Shown: positions 2,543 to 12,497 of the stretch, one piece after another
Layout: the number at the start of each line of letters is the position of its first letter
How positions within the stretch are numbered: the first letter of the stretch is position 1
Origin: a virus
Lineage: Duplodnaviria; Heunggongvirae; Uroviricota; Caudoviricetes
Length of the DNA: 12,497 bases
Reading direction: 5' to 3' (one strand)
Virus record (IMG/VR): IMGVR_UViG_2859799533_000004
Made by a program: the position numbers and the translations under genes
Notes under the pieces: generated by a model
What the model was told of the DNA's origin: nothing
What the model saw: only the letters and a program-made list of their open reading frames with translations
Databases searched by the model: none

Positions 2543-2848
2543 TTACTCTGGTTCTTTGGTCTTGCGGCGCTGGAGTTCTTCACGTGCGACAGTGACGAGC
2601 TGCCCGATCTCCTCGGCGGCTTTGATTCCGAGTTTTTCCACCTGCGCCAGTGCATCGAGCGAAGAAACCAGGGGATTTTCTCCACTTCCTTCTGCCTGGC
2701 GCCGGGCGATCTCACCGCGTACAGCCGTAACTATAAAATTCGCTTTAGTTTCCCCTGGCTGTAGGGATGCCTCAATGCCACTCACTACTTCATGTGGAAA
2801 TCTGGCATTCAGTTGCTGTGACTTATTGTTAACAGAACTCCTGGACAT
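2543..2848 (-). CDS. Putative transcriptional regulator, possibly ribbon-helix-helix type; candidate island repressor (or antitoxin)
   Basis: 101-aa protein from ATG at 2848 with strong SD (GGAGGTG, 5-nt spacer). N-terminal pattern NARFPHEVVSGIEASL...TKANFIVTAVRGEIARRQ fits a beta-strand plus two helices. It is transcribed divergently from the main operon across the operator palindromes. Confidence 0.55.
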   Translation of the reverse strand: MSRSSVNNKSQQLNARFPHEVVSGIEASLQPGETKANFIVTAVRGEIARRQAEGSGENPLVSSLDALAQVEKLGIKAAEEIGQLVTVAREELQRRKTKEPE

Positions 2849-2891
2849 GTTTGCACCTCCCATTAATAACGGGATGCAGTGTAATACAAAA

Positions 2892-2946
2892 GTGAATACC
2901 AAAAAAGACTTGAAATGGTATTCACCTAAATGTAATGTGAATACCA
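2892..2946. promoter_or_regulatory. Operator region: three copies of GTGAATACCA forming two overlapping perfect 10-bp-arm palindromes between the divergent genes
   Basis: GTGAATACCA at 2892-2901, TGGTATTCAC at 2916-2925 (inverted), GTGAATACCA at 2937-2946; read directly. Confidence 0.6.
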
Positions 2947-2984
2947 CAAGTGCTGATACATGCAATTCAGCAATTGAAACGACG

Positions 2985-3017
2985 AAGCCCCGCACTGTTG
3001 GAGCAGTAACGGGGCTT
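2985..3017 (+). promoter_or_regulatory. Imperfect long hairpin in the leader of the rightward operon
   Basis: AAGCCCCG(2985-2992) pairs with CGGGGCTT(3010-3017), extended by CACTG/CAGT. No following T-run, so it is not a classic terminator. Confidence 0.3.
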
Positions 3018-3053
3018 CTAACCACCAACGATAACGAGAGTATCGAGGTAGCT

Positions 3054-3260
3054 ATGAGAAATCATACCACACACCCGCAAGGGCGGGACTCGCACAACCT
3101 GAATAAATACATCTGGCGTTTTATCGCCCTGAGCACTGCACAACCGCGCGTGATTACCATTGAGGCCACCAGCGAACAGGAAGCACGCCAGCAATCCCCG
3201 GCTGGCTGCGTGATGGTATTCGCTGCCCGTATTCGTCAGGAGGTGTGCCATGTGCAATAA
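3054..3260 (+). CDS. Small protein (68 aa), first gene of the rightward operon; tentatively Icd-like (P4 cell-division-inhibitor family)
   Basis: ATG 3054 with SD GAGGT (4-nt spacer). Protein-like sequence YIWRFIALSTAQPRVITIEATSEQEARQQ...VMVFAARIR. The family assignment is from memory and unverified. Its stop overlaps the next start. Confidence 0.5.
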   Translation: MRNHTTHPQGRDSHNLNKYIWRFIALSTAQPRVITIEATSEQEARQQSPAGCVMVFAARIRQEVCHVQ

Positions 3261-4289: not shown

Positions 4290-4589
4290 ATGAAACTTAA
4301 ATATTCTGGCTTAACTGCCAGTGGCAACACTCACCCTAAATTTACGCGCGGTGATATTTACCGCGACCAGTACGGCGGCACGGTAATGATTAAGGGCGTG
4401 GAAGAACGGCGTGTAACCTACCGCCGTGAAGGTTACGAATATGATTGCGTGATGCCTGTTTATCAGTTCCGGCGTGATTTTTCTCTGGTACAGACCGCGC
4501 CGCATAACGTGCCCACCAGCAACGCCAGGGCACGGGCAAACATCCAGAAGCTGAAAACCATGGTTAACGGATTCAGGGGCAAGAAATGA
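4290..4589 (+). CDS. Hypothetical protein (99 aa) immediately upstream of, and coupled to, the replicase gene
   Basis: ATG 4290 with GGAGA upstream; its stop overlaps the rep start (ATGA). Confidence 0.65.
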   Translation: MKLKYSGLTASGNTHPKFTRGDIYRDQYGGTVMIKGVEERRVTYRREGYEYDCVMPVYQFRRDFSLVQTAPHNVPTSNARARANIQKLKTMVNGFRGKK

Positions 4590-5884
4590 AAAGCGCACCG
4601 AACTTAAAAAAACAGCCTTACGACAAGATGACCGAAGTCATTATTTTTGCGGGTAGTGATGCCTGGGCACATGCGAAACAGTGGCAGGAACAGGACGGGC
4701 GACTGGCTGGCGATAATGTGCCTCCCGTTGTGCTGGCTGATGATCAACTGGATGAACTGGCAGACCTGAGAATCATCGACGAGGGGCGCTATTGTGTCCG
4801 GCTGTACAAGGCAGGCCACATCAGGCCATCAAATATTAATGCCATTGCGCACAAGCTGGCGGCGGCGGGTGTAACTGATGCGAATTATTACCCCGAAGGG
4901 ATGCACAGCCATATGCGGGAGAACTGGCGCGAATACCTGGAACGGGTGCGCGGGAAAGAGCCGGCGGAAGAAAAAAACCACCAGCGAAAAACCACGCTAC
5001 CGATGAGCGTTGGATCTACCGGATACGACACGCAACTGGATTACGTGGTTAAGGGGATTATTCCGGCGGTATCGCTATGCAGCATATACGGAGCTAGCGG
5101 GTCCTATAAATCATTCCTTGCCGGATCGTGGGCGTGCCATGTTGCCACTGGTCGCCAGTGGGGAGGCCGCAGGGTTGCACATGGTGCGGTTCTCTATGTG
5201 GTTGGTGAAGGCGGTATAGGTGTTCCGCGTCGTGTAAAAGCCTGGGAGGTTGTGCACGATGAGCAGGTGAAAAATCTGTATCTGGTAAACCGCCCCATCT
5301 TTCCGGCTGCCCCGCTTGATGTTGATGAAATGGTTATCGCTGCCCGTCAGGTGGAGCGGGAAACGGGTAAACCTGTACGCATGATTATTCTGGATACGCT
5401 GGCGCGTTGCTTTGGTGGGAATGATGAAAATGATTCCCGTGATATGGGGGCGTTTATCCGTGGTTGTGACGAACTGAAACGACGCACAGGGGCCACGGTG
5501 CTGGTGGTTCACCATTCCGGCAAGGATGAGACGAAAGGCGCGCGCGGTTCCAGTGCATTTCGTGCTTCGCTGGATGCTGAATACCGGATACGCAGGGAGG
5601 ACGCAGGAAGCGAAGCGCTGGTTATCTCATGCACCAAAATGAAGGACGCGGAGGAACTCAAAGAAGCCGCATATGACTTACGCGTGGTGGAGCTTTTTAC
5701 CGACGCTGACGGTGAATTAATCACGTCGCTGGTGGTGGTGGATGATCCGCGCCCTCCTGTTGAACTGGAGCGCATCGAGGAGGCAGGGAACAAGACGGAA
5801 AACCATACCGCGCTATGGGGTGCATCCGTTCACGCACACAGAACGGCGACAAGTGCACGATCCCGCTGTTACGTGATGACATGA
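4586..5884 (+). CDS. Replication protein: RepA/DnaB-like RecA-fold P-loop ATPase (AAA_25-type helicase core) with ~150-aa N-terminal extension
   Basis: P-loop region IYGASGSYKSFLAGSWACHVATG (5090-5113), Walker B VRMIILDTLARCF, and the family-typical VLVVHHSGKDETKGARGSSA motif. The Walker A is non-canonical (Tyr where the Gly before Lys is expected). Confidence 0.82.
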   Translation: MKSAPNLKKQPYDKMTEVIIFAGSDAWAHAKQWQEQDGRLAGDNVPPVVLADDQLDELADLRIIDEGRYCVRLYKAGHIRPSNINAIAHKLAAAGVTDANYYPEGMHSHMRENWREYLERVRGKEPAEEKNHQRKTTLPMSVGSTGYDTQLDYVVKGIIPAVSLCSIYGASGSYKSFLAGSWACHVATGRQWGGRRVAHGAVLYVVGEGGIGVPRRVKAWEVVHDEQVKNLYLVNRPIFPAAPLDVDEMVIAARQVERETGKPVRMIILDTLARCFGGNDENDSRDMGAFIRGCDELKRRTGATVLVVHHSGKDETKGARGSSAFRASLDAEYRIRREDAGSEALVISCTKMKDAEELKEAAYDLRVVELFTDADGELITSLVVVDDPRPPVELERIEEAGNKTENHTALWGASVHAHRTATSARSRCYVMT

Positions 5885-6185: not shown

Positions 6186-6437
6186 ATGACCCAAAAACGC
6201 AGAGACAGAACAGAGCCAAAATATAAAGCGTTAGACATGACTGAGCACACCTTAAAGGTGGCAATCAGAACGATAGACCGCCACACGCGGGAAGGATACG
6301 CGAAGGAACATCCCGACCTGATAAGCGCATTCATGACCACGGCGGCGGCAAACTTTGCCACGCTGACAGAACGGGAGATTGCCGAAGCGGAACAGGTAAC
6401 AACCATCAACGTTAAAACCGGAGAGGTGGAATCATGA
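6186..6437 (+). CDS. Hypothetical protein (83 aa) overlapping the origin and coupled to ssb
   Basis: Start at ATG 6186 within ORF 6156..6437; stop overlaps the ssb start (ATGA). Confidence 0.5.
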   Translation: MTQKRRDRTEPKYKALDMTEHTLKVAIRTIDRHTREGYAKEHPDLISAFMTTAAANFATLTEREIAEAEQVTTINVKTGEVES

Positions 6438-6856
6438 CAGCACAGATAGCAGCTTACGGGCGGCTGGTGGACGACCCGCAGGTAAAACAGACCAGCAAGG
6501 GCACACCAATGACGCTGGCACGTATGGCGGTCCCCCTTCCGTGCAGCCAGGCAGATGACGGAACGGCGACGATGTGGTTATCCGTCCTGGCATTTGGCAG
6601 ACAGGCCGAAGCACTGGAAAGGCACCGCAAGGGTGAACTCCTGAGCGTGGCGGGTAACATGCAGATCAGCCAGTGGACTGGGCAGAACGGAGAAACGCGG
6701 CAGGGCTGGCAGGTTATCGCAGACAGTGTAATCAGTGCGCGAACGGCGCGACTGGGCGGCAAAAAAGGTCAACAGGGCCAGGCTACTGACGCGCTGAACA
6801 GGGCAAAACAACAGGCGGGGAATGATGATCCGTACGGGGATAACATACCGTTTTAA
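6434..6856 (+). CDS. ssb: Single-stranded DNA-binding protein (SSB, OB fold with acidic C-terminal tail)
   Basis: N-terminal pattern MTAQIAAYGRLVDDPQVKQTSKGTPMTLARMAV and C-terminal ...DDPYGDNIPF, which parallels the E. coli SSB tail DDDIPF. Confidence 0.85.
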   Translation: MTAQIAAYGRLVDDPQVKQTSKGTPMTLARMAVPLPCSQADDGTATMWLSVLAFGRQAEALERHRKGELLSVAGNMQISQWTGQNGETRQGWQVIADSVISARTARLGGKKGQQGQATDALNRAKQQAGNDDPYGDNIPF

Positions 6857-7271: not shown

Positions 7272-7478
7272 ATGGCTGAAGAGAAAAAAGGCGGTGTTTC
7301 GGTGTACATAAGCCCCGAAATCGTGGAGGTGCTCAAGCAGCGCCACAAAAAAAACTATGAGGCTGGCGTGGCGGCTGGACTGGATCCGCTGATGACGCCG
7401 GAGCCGTCGATAGGTTCACTTGTACGCTCTTATTTACTTGCGGCGCTTGGGATGCATAAAAATTATGGGGGTGAATAA
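7272..7478 (+). CDS. Hypothetical protein (68 aa), first gene of the capsid operon
   Basis: ORF with GAGGA upstream; its stop overlaps the capsid gene start (TAATG). Confidence 0.55.
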   Translation: MAEEKKGGVSVYISPEIVEVLKQRHKKNYEAGVAAGLDPLMTPEPSIGSLVRSYLLAALGMHKNYGGE

Positions 7479-8533
7479 TGGCAGGCAAAGCAACGGCACT
7501 TAACACTCACCAGCTTTTTGCGTACCTGAATCGCGGGGATATTGCGGAATTTAAATTTAGTCCGCTGTTTACCACGCTGTTTTTCCCGAAAGTAGCGACA
7601 TTCAACACCCAAAACATCATGCTGGATAACCTGGACACCGAAGAAGTCACTATGTCAGCGTTTTGCTCGCCTATGGTTGGTAGCCAGGTACAGCGCGATA
7701 AAGGGTACGAAACCAGCACGATTAAACCTGGCTACATGAAGCCAAAGCACGAAATCGATCCAACAAAAACCATCATGCGCATGGCTGGAGAAGATCCGGC
7801 ACAGCTTAACGACCCAACCTATCGCCGTATGCGCCTGATTACTGGCAACATGCGCCGCCAGGTAAACGCTATTAAAGCGCGTGTTGAATGGCTGGCGGTA
7901 AATGCGGTAACGACCGGAAAAAACATCATTGAGGGCGAAGGCATAGAACGCTATGAAATCGACTGGAAGATGCCGGAAAACAACATCATAGAGCAGGCCA
8001 AAGGCCGTAAATGGTCCGAGCAGGACAAAGAAACCCACGATCCAATCTATGATATCGAGCTTTATGCGGATCAGGGCAATTGCCCCGCAAACGTCATGAT
8101 TATGGGCGCTGAGGTATGGCGCACGTTACGCAGCTTTAAAAAATTCCGCGAACTGTACGATCTTTCCCGTGGTTCAGAATCCGCCGCAGAACTGGCCTGT
8201 AAAAACCTGGGCGAAGTGGTGAGCTTTAAAGGCTATCTGGGCGATATTGCCCTTATCGTCTATTCCGGCAAATACGCCGACAGCGACGGCACCGAAAAAC
8301 ATTTCCTTGAGCCTGATTTGCTGGTCTTGGGCAACACCAACAATAAAGGGCTGGTTGCTTATGGTGCGATTATGGATCAGGAAGCGGTAAGAACGGGCGC
8401 AACGCAAAACATGTACTACCCGAAAAACTGGATTGAGGACGGCGATCCGGCGATTGAGTACGTGCAGACGCACAGCGCACCGCAGCCGGTGCCGGCAGAC
8501 ATTCGCAAATTTGTTACCGTCAAAATTGGTTAA
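7478..8533 (+). CDS. Major capsid protein, phage lambda gpE family
   Basis: 351 aa. Shares multiple blocks with lambda gpE as recalled: FKFSPLF..LFFP, PGYMKPKHE, EDPAQLNDPTYRRMR, RGSESAAEL..LGEVVSFKGYLGDIALIVYSGKY, YPKNW, GDPA. Similar length to gpE (341 aa). Confidence 0.85.
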   Translation: MAGKATALNTHQLFAYLNRGDIAEFKFSPLFTTLFFPKVATFNTQNIMLDNLDTEEVTMSAFCSPMVGSQVQRDKGYETSTIKPGYMKPKHEIDPTKTIMRMAGEDPAQLNDPTYRRMRLITGNMRRQVNAIKARVEWLAVNAVTTGKNIIEGEGIERYEIDWKMPENNIIEQAKGRKWSEQDKETHDPIYDIELYADQGNCPANVMIMGAEVWRTLRSFKKFRELYDLSRGSESAAELACKNLGEVVSFKGYLGDIALIVYSGKYADSDGTEKHFLEPDLLVLGNTNNKGLVAYGAIMDQEAVRTGATQNMYYPKNWIEDGDPAIEYVQTHSAPQPVPADIRKFVTVKIG

Positions 8534-8544
8534 CGGGGGATTCT

Positions 8545-8880
8545 ATGAACACTCCATACATTGAGTTATTTGCAGGCAGTCAGCAGGTATCCACGACGCT
8601 GGTACATTTTGCCGCTGATGCTGGCGTCATTCAGGAATTTACCCCGCTGATGCTGGCGGACAATGGCGAGTTTAAGCCGTGGGATGGTCAGGCGTCCGGA
8701 AAGGCTGTTTATCTGACTTCGTACCCCGTGGACACGTCAAAGCAGAAATCAGCACAGTGCTACAAGACGGGGATCTTTAATATCGCCGCCGTGAACTGGC
8801 CCGAGAGCGTCGACACCGATGCGAAAAAATGCGCCGCCTTTGCGGGTTCTGGCGTATCCGTTCAGCCGCTGGCCCGATAA
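8545..8880 (+). CDS. Head decoration protein, phage lambda gpD family
   Basis: 111 aa versus 110 aa for gpD. Shared motifs TPLMLAD, WDG, YKTG.F, WPE, KK.AAFAG. Confidence 0.78.
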   Translation: MNTPYIELFAGSQQVSTTLVHFAADAGVIQEFTPLMLADNGEFKPWDGQASGKAVYLTSYPVDTSKQKSAQCYKTGIFNIAAVNWPESVDTDAKKCAAFAGSGVSVQPLAR

Positions 8881-8892
8881 GCAGGGGGAACG

Positions 8893-9306
8893 ATGGCAAC
8901 GAATGAAAGCATCATGACGCTACCGCTGGCGAGTAAATTTAAAGCCGAAGCGCGGGCAATGGCTGACAGAGGTTTATCAACCTACGAGGCCGTATATCAA
9001 CTCAACAAACTGGAAGAGCAGGACAAGCCGCGCGCTGATGCGATTATGGCGCTTCATGAGCATAACGACTATCAGCCGCTGTTACGTGCAATGGCAAACG
9101 TGCCTTGTATCGATGTTGGTACGGCTAAAAGCATCCTTAGCATGACCATAGAGCAGGAACGCCAGAAGGTTGCGCCGGAGCTTACCGCAGCCTTTGAAAA
9201 CTTTATGGACATGCACAGCCCGCAAGCCGTTTCAGCTGGCATGGCATACGACGGCAGAAACCCGGGCGATGATGGCGACATCGAGAGCATACTGAAAACC
9301 ATCTGA
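8893..9306 (+). CDS. Hypothetical protein (137 aa), last gene of the capsid operon, immediately upstream of cos
   Basis: ORF with GGGGGAA SD; no family recognised. Candidate packaging accessory protein by position only. Confidence 0.6.
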   Translation: MATNESIMTLPLASKFKAEARAMADRGLSTYEAVYQLNKLEEQDKPRADAIMALHEHNDYQPLLRAMANVPCIDVGTAKSILSMTIEQERQKVAPELTAAFENFMDMHSPQAVSAGMAYDGRNPGDDGDIESILKTI

Positions 9307-9311
9307 GACAA

Positions 9312-9334
9312 GGCCGGAGAAATCCGGCTTTTTT
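9312..9334 (+). terminator. Rho-independent terminator after the capsid operon
   Basis: GCCGGA-gaaa-TCCGGC hairpin plus TTTTTTT; nearly identical to the terminator at 6873-6894. Confidence 0.7.
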
Positions 9335-9420
9335 TACGGGTCCTTTCCGGCATATGGACCCGTTACGGGGCGGCGACCTCGCGGGTTTTCGCTATTTATG
9401 ACGTTTTTCCGTGAAGGTGA
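9335..9420 (+). other. Lambda-type cohesive-end site (S2): cosQ, cosN and the start of a lambda-like cosB
   Basis: ACGGGTCCTTTCCGG...GACCCGTTACG then GGGCGGCGACCT (9367-9378) CGCGGGTTTTCGCTATTTATGA matches the lambda right-end/left-end junction as recalled; followed by CGTTTTTCCGTG, resembling lambda R3. Confidence 0.85.
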
Positions 9421-9468
9421 CACCACCACCACTTGATTAATATTTAACCATGCAGTTAAGGTAACATT

Positions 9469-9909
9469 ATGATTGATAAAGCTTGTTTTGTAAGTCAGCA
9501 GGAAATAGCTGAACATTTCAAGGTTAACAGAACCACTATTCGCGCATGGACCAAACAGGGGATGCCGTATCTTAATGCGGATCGCGGAAAGTCTGGCGGT
9601 TATCACATCGGGCATACATTGCTTTGGTCTTCAGGTAAAAGCCGTCTTGAGGCCATCAGATATCACGTAGAAACCAGTGCGCTGGAAAAAATTATGTTTG
9701 CCAGGCTGCTTTCATCTGAGCGTGACGAGTACTCCAGTGAAGAAACAGAACATAGATTTGATGAAGGTTTACAGATTTACGGCTACTCACCGGAAGAAGT
9801 GAGCAAAGCGCGAAATAAAATGGCCGGCTTTCTGGCTGGGTGGCGTCATGCCGTAAGCGTTCGCCGTGCCAGCATGGAACAATCAGTCGTTACAGAACAG
9901 CAAAGTTAA
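9469..9909 (+). CDS. Small-terminase-like protein with Nu1-type N-terminal winged-HTH; candidate island packaging-specificity factor
   Basis: N-terminus VSQQEIAEHFKVNRTTIRAWTKQGMPYL parallels lambda Nu1 VNKKQLADIFGASIRTIQNWQEQGMPVL; the C-terminal half is unrelated to Nu1. Gene sits directly downstream of cos, as Nu1 does in lambda. Confidence 0.72.
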   Translation: MIDKACFVSQQEIAEHFKVNRTTIRAWTKQGMPYLNADRGKSGGYHIGHTLLWSSGKSRLEAIRYHVETSALEKIMFARLLSSERDEYSSEETEHRFDEGLQIYGYSPEEVSKARNKMAGFLAGWRHAVSVRRASMEQSVVTEQQS

Positions 9910-9939
9910 AAATCACTTTCTGTTACGCCATCAAATACG

Positions 9940-10090
9940 CAATACAACAACCACGTATTTTTTTAAAACTATTTGATTCAATTAGCATTTTTTTATTTTT
10001 AGCATCAAAAAAACACTATCAGGTTGTTGTATTGCTCTTTATTTTTACTTAGTTATCAAATGGATATGACAAACAATTAAACAACAACCT
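9940..10090. promoter_or_regulatory. cosB-like region for the inverted cos: three ACAACAACC sites in alternating orientation with an intervening partial IHF motif
   Basis: GCAATACAACAACC (9940-9953, +), GGTTGTTGTATTGC (10022-10035, inverted, perfect 14-bp IR), ACAACAACCT (10081-10090, +); TATCAAatggATA at 10054-10066 matches WATCAA of the IHF consensus but not its TTR end. Confidence 0.4.
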
Positions 10091-10103
10091 CCCTCTAAAA
10101 AAG

Positions 10104-10169
10104 CTCATAAATAGCGAAAAACCGCGAGGTCGCCGCCCCGTAACGGGCCATAATTCCAGGAAGGACCCG
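10104..10169 (-). other. Second lambda-type cos site (S3) in inverted orientation
   Basis: Reverse complement reads CGGGTCCTTCCTGG..GGCCCGTTACGGGGCGGCGACCTCGCGGTTTTTCGCTATTTATGA; the cosN 12-mer is identical to S2 (complement at 10127-10138), and the flanks are about 85-90 percent identical to S2. Confidence 0.8.
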
Positions 10170-10202
10170 ACGACACCAGACTATCAGAACGATGGGGGCA
10201 CA

Positions 10203-10484
10203 ATGACAGAAGCCGAAATACTGCGATTAATCCGCCGCGTTGCCGGAATCAGCCAGCAGGCCGACGAACAGACCACGCAGCCGGACAGCGTGACCGCCGA
10301 AAATTATGTTCGTGTGGTTGCTGAGGTGATTCGCCGTAATGGTATCCAGCTTAATGATGTGGATATGCGCAACATACGGATCCGCGTTCTTGAAATGCTG
10401 GCCTACAATCGCCGCGTGGCACTGTATCGGGAAACGGAGAAAATTACGTACCACTGGAAGAAGCCGGAGCGGTTGCGGCGGTAA
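10203..10484 (+). CDS. Hypothetical protein (93 aa), 3' accessory gene of the island
   Basis: ATG 10203 with GGGGG SD 6 nt upstream; protein-like composition; no family recognised. Confidence 0.5.
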   Translation: MTEAEILRLIRRVAGISQQADEQTTQPDSVTAENYVRVVAEVIRRNGIQLNDVDMRNIRIRVLEMLAYNRRVALYRETEKITYHWKKPERLRR

Positions 10485-10652
10485 CTGGTTGATATTTTCG
10501 AAATTCGCCAGCGGCGAACATCGGGGAAACCAGCCTAACCCGTTGATATTTTCGGGAACCTCAAATTGAAGAGGTCGGAAACATAACCCGTCATATTCTG
10601 GATGCTGATAATTACCACGCAGCCCATTAAGGCCTAACCCGTTGATTCTTCC
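10482..10652 (+). repeat. Four degenerate direct repeats of about 19 bp (TAACCCGTTGATATTTTCG) at 48-54 bp period
   Basis: Copies at 10482-10500, 10536-10554, 10584-10600 and 10635-10652, starting at the stop codon of the preceding ORF. Confidence 0.6.
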
Positions 10653-10931
10653 ACAATCCCCCATTGGGGAGGCTGGGCGGCCTGCTGTGGGCTTTTCCAC
10701 CATTGGTGGAAAGGCGCACATCTGGATCATCATTACGGTGATCAAGGGTATGTAAAACCCACCAGCCTGATTGACATTTAACCGGAAAAAAGCCAGGTAG
10801 CCCCGTTATGGGGATCCCCATATCGACATTAACGCCCCTCATGAATTGGCGCGCTTCCCCCTGGAAAGATGACCCGCCTGTATATTTCTTGTGTCTATTT
10901 GTTCCACGTTGTTTCATACAGTGCAACGATC

Positions 10932-10955
10932 GGTGTAGTTAATGGTGTAGTCAAT
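10932..10955 (+). repeat. Tandem 12-bp direct repeat GGTGTAGT(T/C)AAT
   Basis: Two adjacent copies, 11 of 12 identical, followed by a GCACT-N5-AGTGC dyad, in the region downstream of phoQ. Confidence 0.45.
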
Positions 10956-11036
10956 TTGCGATTTTTAGCACTTTTGCAGTGCAAATCATTTAATTAAATC
11001 AATGGCTTGCCTTGATGTAGTGATAAAAGGACATAT

Positions 11037-12497
11037 TTATTCATCTTTCGGCGCAGAATGCTGGCGACCAAAAATCACCTCCATCCGCGCACCGCCCAGC
11101 ATGCTCTCTCCGGCGACGATTTTACCCTCATATTGCTCGGTGATTTCGCGGGCTACCGCCAGCCCTACACCTTGCCCAGGGCGTAAAGTATCAACCCGTT
11201 GACCACGGTCGAAAATGACCTCTCGCTTGCTTAATGGAATACCGGGGCCATCATCCTCGACCACAATATAGAGATGCTCGTCGGTTTGCCTTGCAGAAAT
11301 TTCGACAAACTCGAGGCAATATTTACAGGCATTATCCAGCACGTTGCCCATCACCTCGACAAAATCGTTCTGCTCACCGACAAAGCTGATCTCTGGCGAA
11401 ATATCGAGAGAGATATTGACCCCTTTGCGTTGATACACTTTGTTCAGCGCTGAGGTGAGATTGTCCAGCAGTGGGGCGACCGGATGCAGCTCGCGGCTGA
11501 GCAATGTCCCGCCGCGCATACTGGCACGATGCAGGTAGTAGCCAATTTGCTGTGAAATGCGGCTGATTTGCTCCAGCATTACCGGCTCAGCATCACTGAC
11601 GCTCATCTTTTCACTACGCAGAGAACGCAGCGTACTTTGCAGCACCGCCAGTGGCGTTTTCAGACTATGGGTCAGGTCGGTGAGCGTCGTACGGTATTTG
11701 TCGTAACGTTCGCGTTCACTTTTTAACAATCGGTTCAGGTTTCGTACCAGACTGGTCAGTTCTCGCGTTGTGGCTGGATTGAGCAATTCGCGGTTATGTT
11801 CTTCCAGTTCGCGGACTTCTTTTGCCAGGGCTTCGATGGGGCGTAAACTCCACCAGGCGGCGACCCACAGCAGCGGGATCACTAACAGCAGATTGGCTGA
11901 GAGCACATAGATAAACCAGCTCCAGACCATATAGGAACTTTTTAGCTCCACCGGAATGGTATCCACCACCACAATGGTTAATTTTGGCATCCGCGATGTT
12001 GCCGGGTAGACGTTTACTGCCACCGAGTGGGTCATCTCCGCGTCGTCATCATCTTCCCGCACTTCCTGCAACTGTTGCTGTATCGAATGATCTCCACTCA
12101 GCAAGAGGCTGGTATCGTTAACATCCGCTTCAATTTCATGAAAACCATTCGATTTCAGCCAGTCAGGCTGGATCATCTTCATCAGCCAGGGCACGTCACG
12201 TTGCGCCCATAAAAGCTGCCCGTTCTCATCATAAATTAGCGTCATGGTGGGGCTTTGCTTGTCGATATTTTCGGGTAACTCGACATGCAACTTATTGTTT
12301 TCCCACTTCGCAAGGGTATAGAACAGATTGCTCTCGCCACGTAACAGCCGAAACGTAGTTTTATCGAAACTGACGCTATAACCGATCAGCGCGACCATTC
12401 CGTAGGCAAGCGAAAGCACCAGTACTACCGCAGCCGTTGCCAACAGAAAACGTACCCGCAGCGAGAGCGGGAAAAAAAGACGCAGTAATTTTTTCAT
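11037..12497 (-). CDS. phoQ: Sensor histidine kinase PhoQ of the PhoP/PhoQ two-component system (chromosomal flank)
   Basis: Complete 486-aa ORF recognised as PhoQ: N-terminus [41 protein letters not shown], periplasmic acidic patch [13 protein letters not shown], phosphoacceptor [11 protein letters not shown], and kinase G-boxes DDGPGIP and GQGVGLAVA. Confidence 0.97.

Follow-up and report, generated by a model that had tools for sequence, protein, structure and literature searches.

The window, meaning the whole stretch of 12,497 nucleotides analysed here, aligns with positions 1377930-1390669 of the E. coli CFT073 genome at 94-99% identity, with the exception of the replication module and of 200 bp at 9905-10105. 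That part of the CFT073 genome, between roxA and phoQ, is the published island EcCICFT073 (PMC6092414, PMC6739421). The alignment and the gene content identify the window as a phage-inducible chromosomal island (PICI) of the EcCICFT073 type with roxA/phoQ integration. The island is about 11 kb long, since its right end is marked by attR, a 36-nt direct repeat with the sequence located just upstream of int in CFT073. The main genes and features are the following:

1-1230: tyrosine integrase (Pfam)
4586-5884: AAA_25 RepA-like helicase (Pfam)
6434-6856: SSB (Pfam)
7478-8533: lambda E-type major capsid protein (Pfam)
8545-8880: lambda D-type decoration protein (Pfam)
9338-9432, plus strand: cos1, with cosQ at 9338-9344, cosN at 9368-9379 and the Rpp-type cosB element ACACCACCACCAC at 9420-9432 (bp 53-65)
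9469-9909, plus strand: rppA, for redirecting phage packaging protein, the TerS-like gene of the original prediction
10203-10484, plus strand: conserved island ORF of 93 aa beyond the cosQ of cos2 (phrog_1561, no assigned function)
10921-10956, plus strand: attR core, right end of the island
11037-12497, minus strand: phoQ, chromosomal (Pfam)

Two cos sites face each other across rppA. Exact copies of the cohesive-end sequence GGGCGGCGACCT are found at 9368-9379 on the plus strand and at 10127-10138 on the minus strand. They lie in the arms (9337-9408 and 10098-10169) of an inverted repeat of 72 nt, which is 86% complementary and has 689 nt between its arms. The rpp start codon ATG is located at bp 102 of the plus-strand site, which is the rpp start given for PICI-C (Murialdo and Feiss, PMC9026076). 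The plus-strand site is thus cos1, and the minus-strand site, which is the subject of this report, is cos2. In the island at hand, cos1 is identical to cos1 of CFT073, cosB included. The phrog_1561 ORF on the far side of cos2 adjoins this site in every related island examined.

With bp 1 of cos2 at position 10138, the elements of the site are arranged as follows:

10162-10168, minus strand: cosQ (GGGTCCT), read from the sequence
10127-10138, minus strand: cosN, exact match to the cohesive-end sequence, inside the 72-nt inverted repeat
10076-10089, minus strand: R3-like element GGTTGTTGTTTAAT, bp 50-63
10054-10066, plus strand: I1-like IHF motif TATCAAATGGATA, bp 73-85, between R3 and R2, with one mismatch to WATCAANNNNTTR
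10022-10035, plus strand: R2-like element GGTTGTTGTATTGC, bp 104-117, inverted relative to R3 and R1
9966-9978, minus strand: second IHF-like motif AATCAAATAGTTT, between R2 and R1, with one mismatch to the consensus
9939-9952, minus strand: R1-like element GGTTGTTGTATTGC, bp 187-200

From the start of cosQ to the first base of the cohesive end the spacing is 30 nt in cos2, and it is the same in cos1 and in the cos sites read from lambdoid prophages. The R2- and R1-like elements are an identical 14-mer, and R3 differs from them in its 3' part. The sequence ACAACAACC, which marks all three, occurs in the 12.5-kb window in three exact copies (9944-9952, plus; 10022-10030, minus; 10081-10089, plus) that fall within 146 bp of each other. 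Only 0.15 copies are expected by chance, and a count of three was not attained in any of 200 shuffles. The anatomy thus bears out most of what had been read from the letters of this DNA, namely a second, inverted cosQ-cosN on the minus strand (the 72-nt copy at 10098-10169), a TerS-like gene bracketed by convergent cos sites, three alternating elements on the cosB side (with coordinates that were right within 1 nt), and an IHF-like motif between the first two of them. A scan of 9250-10600 for promoters and terminators gave nothing above chance that bears on cos2.

The predicted likeness to the lambda cosB layout was found as well, in the order R3, I1, R2, R1. The cosQ and cosN sequences and their spacing are those of lambda cos, R3 starts at bp 50 in both, and an inverted R2 follows at about bp 105-120. 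In lambda, R3 occupies bp 50-65, R2 (inverted) bp 109-124 and R1 bp 151-166, so that the R1 of cos2 lies about 36 bp further out. The R2 and R1 of lambda share a 16-mer (PMC9026076), much as the R2 and R1 of cos2 share their 14-mer. In contrast, the R sequences themselves are unrelated, with GGTTGTTGT in cos2 and CGTTTCC in lambda. With an exact cosN, a properly spaced cosQ and a complex cosB in the arrangement R3, IHF site, inverted R2 and R1, cos2 is a complete lambdoid cos (cosQ, cosN and cosB) in inverted orientation, and plausibly a functional one.

The product of the gene between the two sites is a member of the Rpp family. It differs from RppA of CFT073 (c1503) only by the E110D substitution and in the C-terminal tail, its DNA-binding domain is identical to that of the CFT073 protein, and it matches RppC (PDB 6hlk) with E = 2.4e-31. 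The likeness to TerS is limited to the N-terminal HTH. A related-locus search of genome contigs gave no homologue of Rpp from other species. In a heterodimer with RppA, the helper TerS is redirected to the cos1 cosB (Fillol-Salom et al. 2019, Mol Cell, PMC6739421). In plasmids with swapped cosB regions, the response to RppA was limited to the cos1 cosB of EcCICFT073 (PMC6739421). The cos sites of PICI-A, -B, -C and -G have a conserved segment at bp 55-63, termed R3-PICI (PMC9026076). In cos1 of the present island this segment reads ACCACCACC, within the 9420-9432 element. In cos2, bp 55-63 read GTTGTTTAA instead, which sets the site apart from the Rpp-dependent R3-PICI class. A common protein site in the R regions of cos1 and cos2 was considered and rejected, as the two regions have only AGGT near bp 49-52 in common.

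A second cos in such an island has been reported before. For EcCICFT073, the description of cos1 and cos2 and their deletion date from 2018 (Fillol-Salom et al., ISME J, PMC6092414). Both sites confer phage-mediated plasmid transfer. Transfer of the island itself depends on cos1: it is reduced by deletion of cos1, abolished by deletion of both sites, and raised, with lambda and phi80, by deletion of cos2 (PMC6092414). These experiments concern the CFT073 variant of the cosB, with lambda and phi80 as the only helpers, and no further discussion of cos2 was found in the literature searched. The cos2 described here agrees with that of EcCICFT073 in the island family, the roxA/phoQ integration site, the location downstream of rppA, the inverted orientation and a near-identical cosQ-cosN arm. 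However, the two islands are not homologous in the approximately 200 bp that form the cosB side (9905-10105), where the elements are of the CATGTCCGG type in CFT073 and three copies of GGTTGTTGT here. Since the cosB side is unrelated, the published RppA-negative result for cos2 applies to the CFT073 variant only.

The origin of the cosB side of cos2 is indicated by its matches in bacterial genomes. The segment of 198 bp has matches in 304 complete E. coli genomes, full-length ones in 298, which fall into the following bands of identity:

At least 95% identity: 35 genomes, presumably with islands of this type; strain 300709, the only one that was checked, carries an rpp island
80-90% identity: 23 genomes, related islands among them
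60-80% identity: 246 genomes, with prophages where sampled

Five matches sampled from the 75-79% band (O111:H- 11128, OkiPb01690, EC42405, strain 48 and SE11) all proved to be prophages. In each of the five the segment is located directly between the lysis genes and the terS-terL-W-portal genes, immediately upstream of terS, and is therefore the prophage's own cosB. The TerS encoded next to it belongs to the Nu1 family (Pfam Phage_Nu1, PF07471, E = 1.4e-20). Its overall identity to lambda Nu1 is 37%, and the N-terminal DNA-binding domain is different. A tblastn search with this DNA-binding domain led to gp1 of phage N15 and to an Enterobacter Ravinvirus phage. The first 43 residues of the prophage TerS are about 88% identical to the N15 and Ravinvirus proteins, with an identical recognition helix (GISVQAFDKW), and overall identity to the Ravinvirus TerS, which is near-identical to that of N15, is 47%.

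The DNA agrees with the protein comparison. Bp 48-63 of cos2 (GAGGTTGTTGTTTAAT) are identical to bp 48-63 of N15 cos in 16 of 16 positions. All 12 positions of bp 48-59 are included, the stretch to which R3-N15 was mapped by block mutations (Feiss et al. 2015, PMC4669245). Scrambling of bp 48-53 in N15 lowered the phage yield about 7-fold, and scrambling of bp 54-59 about 100-fold (PMC4669245). R3 is also equally far from cosN in N15 and cos2. The two sites differ in that N15 has a simple cosB without I1, R2 and R1, a terS that starts at bp 89, and a cosN that deviates at bp 9 and 12 of the cohesive end. The related Enterobacter Ravinvirus phage shares with N15 the R3 at bp 50 and the lack of R2 and R1.

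Another counterpart is provided by the cosBs of the Monarch group of prophages (PMC4669245; the facts on N15 and Monarch used here are from this source and from PMC9026076). They share with cos2 the R3-N15-like elements, three in number with R2 inverted, and the IHF-like site between R3 and R2. They are homologous to the cos2 cosB over its full length (75-79%), and the TerS of these prophages carries the recognition helix of N15. Unlike them, the cosB of cos2 belongs to a satellite and not to a phage and is not followed by a terS; the next gene is the convergent rppA, on the opposite strand, whose 3' end it reaches. No TerS with this specificity is encoded on the island. The missing terS is to be expected of a satellite that borrows the TerS of its helper. 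Its R3 match and its homologous tripartite architecture show that this cosB is nothing specific to the island. It is a complex cosB of the Monarch type, in which three R elements of the N15 type are combined with an IHF-like site (type Y in the following).

No isolated phage with a whole type-Y cosB was found when the phage collection was searched with the DNA of the cos2 region. The matches in this collection end after cosN, except for the one in the Enterobacter Ravinvirus phage, which extends to R3 and led to N15; these two are the only phages of the collection in which R3 was found. Since the collection contains no isolated E. coli phage with a full type-Y cosB, the proposed helpers are known as prophages only. 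In most genomes with the island the type-Y cosB is present in a single copy, so most hosts of the island are without a resident cognate prophage.

The generality of the arrangement was surveyed in 11 islands of the EcCICFT073 family, which were found by DNA comparison among E. coli genomes and occupy several integration sites. All 11 have a second cos that is convergent with cos1. In each of these islands, as in the window, the context is that of int, capsid E, D and rpp genes with a cosQ-cosN downstream of rppA, which places the site of the window among the cos2 sites of EcCICFT073-family PICIs. The cosB on the cos2 side is of three types:

Type Y (N15/Monarch): 6 islands
Type X (CATGTCCGG, as in CFT073): 4 islands
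Type Z (ACTTCCGGTTT): 1 island

The element ACACCACCACCAC is found at bp 53-65 of cos1 in all nine islands with intact rpp, whatever the type of cos2, including two with a cosN from a different sequence family. In two islands with truncated rpp, B771 and GB089, type X occupies the cos1 slot and type Y the cos2 slot. Type X, like type Y, is homologous to a prophage cosB located directly upstream of a terS. The linked TerS differs from the type-Y TerS in its DNA-binding domain and agrees with it in the C-terminal half. For CFT073, a derivation of the cos2 cosB from the phage-21 type cos of the resident icd prophage was considered and dismissed, because the R element of that prophage is CATGTCGG and its TerS is of the 21 type; the CATGTCCGG elements belong to another prophage terS lineage. 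The threefold GGTTGTTGT is found in prophages that lack rpp and in the two islands in which rpp is truncated. In this covariation of cosB types and readers, the Rpp-type element thus goes with rpp, and the GGTTGTTGT elements go with the TerS domain of the N15 type.

Conservation among the PICI copies is highest in the R elements. Between the five distinct type-Y copies, pairwise identity is 100% in R3, 92% in R2 and 97% in R1, and 72-83% in the spacers. When the prophage copies are included, the conserved blocks of the alignment are the three R elements, the core of the I1-like motif (TATCAA / TTGATAA, invariant in all copies) and the ATCAAA core of the second IHF-like motif, which is likewise conserved in all of them.

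Who reads cos2, then? The original prediction assigned its cosB to the TerS-like protein of the island and not to the Nu1 of a helper, so that the ACAACAACC elements would be binding sites of Rpp. The location of the elements beside rpp, at the R3, R2 and R1 positions of lambda, speaks for this assignment, as does the AGGT at about bp 49-52 of both cos sites. We nevertheless consider it very improbable. The DNA-binding domain of RppA is that of the CFT073 protein, and the target of the latter was genetically mapped to the cos1 cosB, which is unchanged here. There is no relation between the recognition region of Rpp (KVNRTTIRAWTKQ) and GISVQAFDKW, the recognition helix of the TerS family found together with GGTTGTTGT. 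Prophages without rpp have the same three elements ahead of terS, islands with a truncated rpp retain them, and the R3 element is identical to the experimentally defined R3 of N15. As the target of RppA maps to cos1, R3 is that of N15 and the cosB is homologous to those of prophages, the likeliest reader of cos2 is the small terminase of a helper with N15/Monarch specificity. We therefore favour the explanation that cos2 is a helper-type cos, which probably allows helpers of N15/Monarch specificity to package the island without Rpp. Should RppA capture an N15-type TerS as well, cos2 would be shut off.

Two other explanations compete with this one. According to one of them, cos2 is a non-adaptive relic, a piece of helper cos that was captured by recombination, is slightly deleterious and plays no part in the spread of the island. 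This would account for the increased transfer of EcCICFT073 by lambda and phi80 upon deletion of cos2, for the mutated cos2 cosN in one related island, and for the missing cognate prophage in most hosts, and it would be in keeping with the mosaic nature of the islands, which have clear recombination scars around their cos sites. A relic is nonetheless disfavoured by a convergent second cos in every island sampled at several integration sites, by a cosQ, a cosN and three R elements that are all intact here, and by R elements that are better conserved than the spacers. Furthermore, the cosB was swapped at least two times for other complete prophage-type cosBs, and was not lost. On balance, we find a relic unlikely. 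According to the other explanation, cos2 is mainly an interference or decoy site that, on the multicopy replicating island, titrates or misdirects the N15/Monarch terminase and lowers the helper yield, while the island is productively packaged via cos1. Interference with helper packaging is general among PICIs, competition for TerS would be expected from a cognate cosB on a high-copy replicon, and initiation at a prophage-borne cognate cos wastes proheads (PMC4669245). Against a pure TerS sponge stands the retention of cosQ and cosN, for which it would have no need. In addition, co-oriented copies of cos2 on concatemers would terminate packaging normally and give rise to transducing particles, which makes decoy and packaging functions hard to separate. 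A site that serves mainly for interference appears improbable to us, more so than a relic.

If cos2 is a packaging site for N15/Monarch-type helpers, the following course of events can be proposed. During the growth of a helper of this specificity, excision of the island and its replication into concatemers would take place. The helper's own TerS dimer would bind R3 and R2 across an IHF-induced bend, and would thereby position TerL to nick cosN at 10127-10138. Packaging would then proceed leftwards, through rpp, cos1, the capsid genes and int, and would continue round the unit up to the next co-oriented cos2, where cosQ and cosN would bring it to an end. This route would require neither RppA nor cos1. 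For helpers of the lambda, phi80 or 21 type, cos1 with its ACACCACCACCAC element would be the site used, in dependence on the Rpp-TerS complex, and packaging would run rightwards. The convergent pair would then act as a packaging module of dual specificity, the cos2 slot of which holds whichever helper-cognate cosB the lineage has acquired. The higher transfer by lambda and phi80 upon deletion of cos2 is consistent with a non-cognate site that is mildly disruptive to these helpers. Packaging in both directions, as anticipated in the original prediction, is plausible on island concatemers. Its extension to the flanking chromosome is unlikely to be productive, because a cos terminase requires that a co-oriented cos follows downstream, failing which it yields filled heads that are non-infectious (PMC4669245).

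Several observations do not sit easily with such a role. The presence of cos2 has a measurable cost with lambda and phi80, the cosN of cos2 is degenerate in the related island LH50-c, most hosts have no cognate prophage, and the full type-Y cosB is absent from the isolated E. coli phages of the phage collection.

Satellites with a copy of the packaging site of their helper are known. SaPIbov5, P4 and the helper-embedded PICI 11capE follow the same strategy, in which the unmodified terminase of the helper packages the satellite. In the case of 11capE, a cos region of 258 bp is common to the island and the helper prophage, with 90% identity (PMC10111431). The present island differs from these in that the helper-type cos lies beside a convergent, Rpp-dependent cos of another specificity. 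The cos2 described here is a known PICI cos2 combined with a known type of phage cosB. What appears to be new is the combination, that is, a cos2 slot that accommodates helper-cognate cosBs of alternative specificities, a statement that was not found in the literature searched.

The published work left open what purpose two cos sites serve, and for this island the sequence comparison offers a concrete and testable answer. N15-specific DNA is not packaged by a lambda-specific terminase (PMC4669245), and the N15/Monarch specificity of cos2 is one that the terminases of lambda and 21 cannot use. If cos2 is functional, a single satellite could be mobilised by lambdoid phages of at least two classes of terminase specificity. 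The helper range would then be wider, and the islands and their cargo would have more routes to spread among E. coli. The further step, to regard the two-cos arrangement as an adaptive and modular unit of dual specificity, seems to us about evenly balanced. In such a unit, one slot would hold cos1 together with rpp and hijack terminases of the lambda, phi80 or 21 type through Rpp, and the other would hold an exchangeable, complete cosB. The latter would come from a different lambdoid lineage (N15/Monarch in the present island, at least two other types elsewhere) and would give the island access also to helpers that escape redirection by Rpp.

Conversion of one inverted arm by the other was also considered. 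The arms of cos1 and cos2 represent distinct lineages that are conserved across islands, and frequent conversion between them is therefore unlikely. A past inversion or recombination between the arms is nevertheless seen in two islands, B771 and GB089.

The island in the window carries a RepA-like AAA_25 helicase (4586-5884), whereas the replication module of EcCICFT073 encodes a primase-family protein (12241-13995 of L001, the CFT073 island region). Given this difference, the island is a mosaic relative of the published EcCICFT073 and not a copy of it. Other related islands are as follows.

NZ_CP120557, about 1621900-1622410: E. coli B771 (L005), related island with reduced rpp
GB089 (L020): related island with reduced rpp
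NZ_CP128926, about 2824258-2828600: E. coli TUM9812 (L011), related island inserted in prophage terL

In the B771 and GB089 islands, only the 3' end of rpp, the gene of the redirecting phage packaging protein, is left. A cosB of the CFT073 cos2 type (type X) occupies the cos1 slot, and a reversed rpp 3' end is present at the junction; this is the footprint left when the inverted cos arms once recombined or underwent inversion. Both islands have two convergent cos sites of prophage type and lack Rpp. The TUM9812 island, by its position in terL, has the helper-embedded PICI configuration. The cosN sequences of its cos1 and cos2 both belong to a different sequence family, which is also found in the L007 prophage together with a cosB of the N15/Monarch type (type Y), the type present at cos2 of the window. 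The cos2 of E. coli LH50-c (L015) has a degenerate cohesive-end sequence (GGGCGTCGAACC) next to an intact type X cosB, and may be in decay.

For cosB types Y and X, the cognate TerS proteins of prophages were compared.

6202-6708 of prophage L004: TerS cognate to cosB type Y
2672-3181 of prophage L013: TerS cognate to cosB type X

The N-terminal DNA-binding domains are unrelated, and the C-terminal halves are nearly identical, with one difference across the last 77 residues. Packaging specificity has here been exchanged by a domain swap in nature, as between lambda and 21.

In E. coli CFT073 itself, a prophage cos lies near the island (L001/L021).

NC_004431, position 1387558: EcCICFT073 cos1
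NC_004431, position 1424744: cos of the neighbouring icd prophage

The two sites are co-oriented and separated by 37,186 bp, which comes close to the lower limit of what a lambda head packages. In this strain, phoPQ-purB-icd DNA could conceivably be packaged in situ from cos to cos.

Two further observations concern the window.

8893-9306: 137-aa protein, annotated in some genomes as 'phage head-tail connector protein'
10482-10494, 10536-10548 and 10635-10647, minus strand: the IHF consensus WATCAANNNNTTR, present three times without mismatch

The 137-aa protein resembles a Nu3/scaffold-like domain, because its match to a head maturation protease family (phrog_53) lies in the C-terminal part, at positions 495-567 of 583. 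Its presence alongside homologues of E and D suggests a partial capsid-assembly set on the island. The WATCAANNNNTTR matches fall within short direct repeats, GCCTAACCCGTTGAT and TAACnnGTTGATATTTTCG, between the 93-aa ORF and the attR core. These matches probably serve the island attP region as integrase arm-type sites, IHF sites or both.
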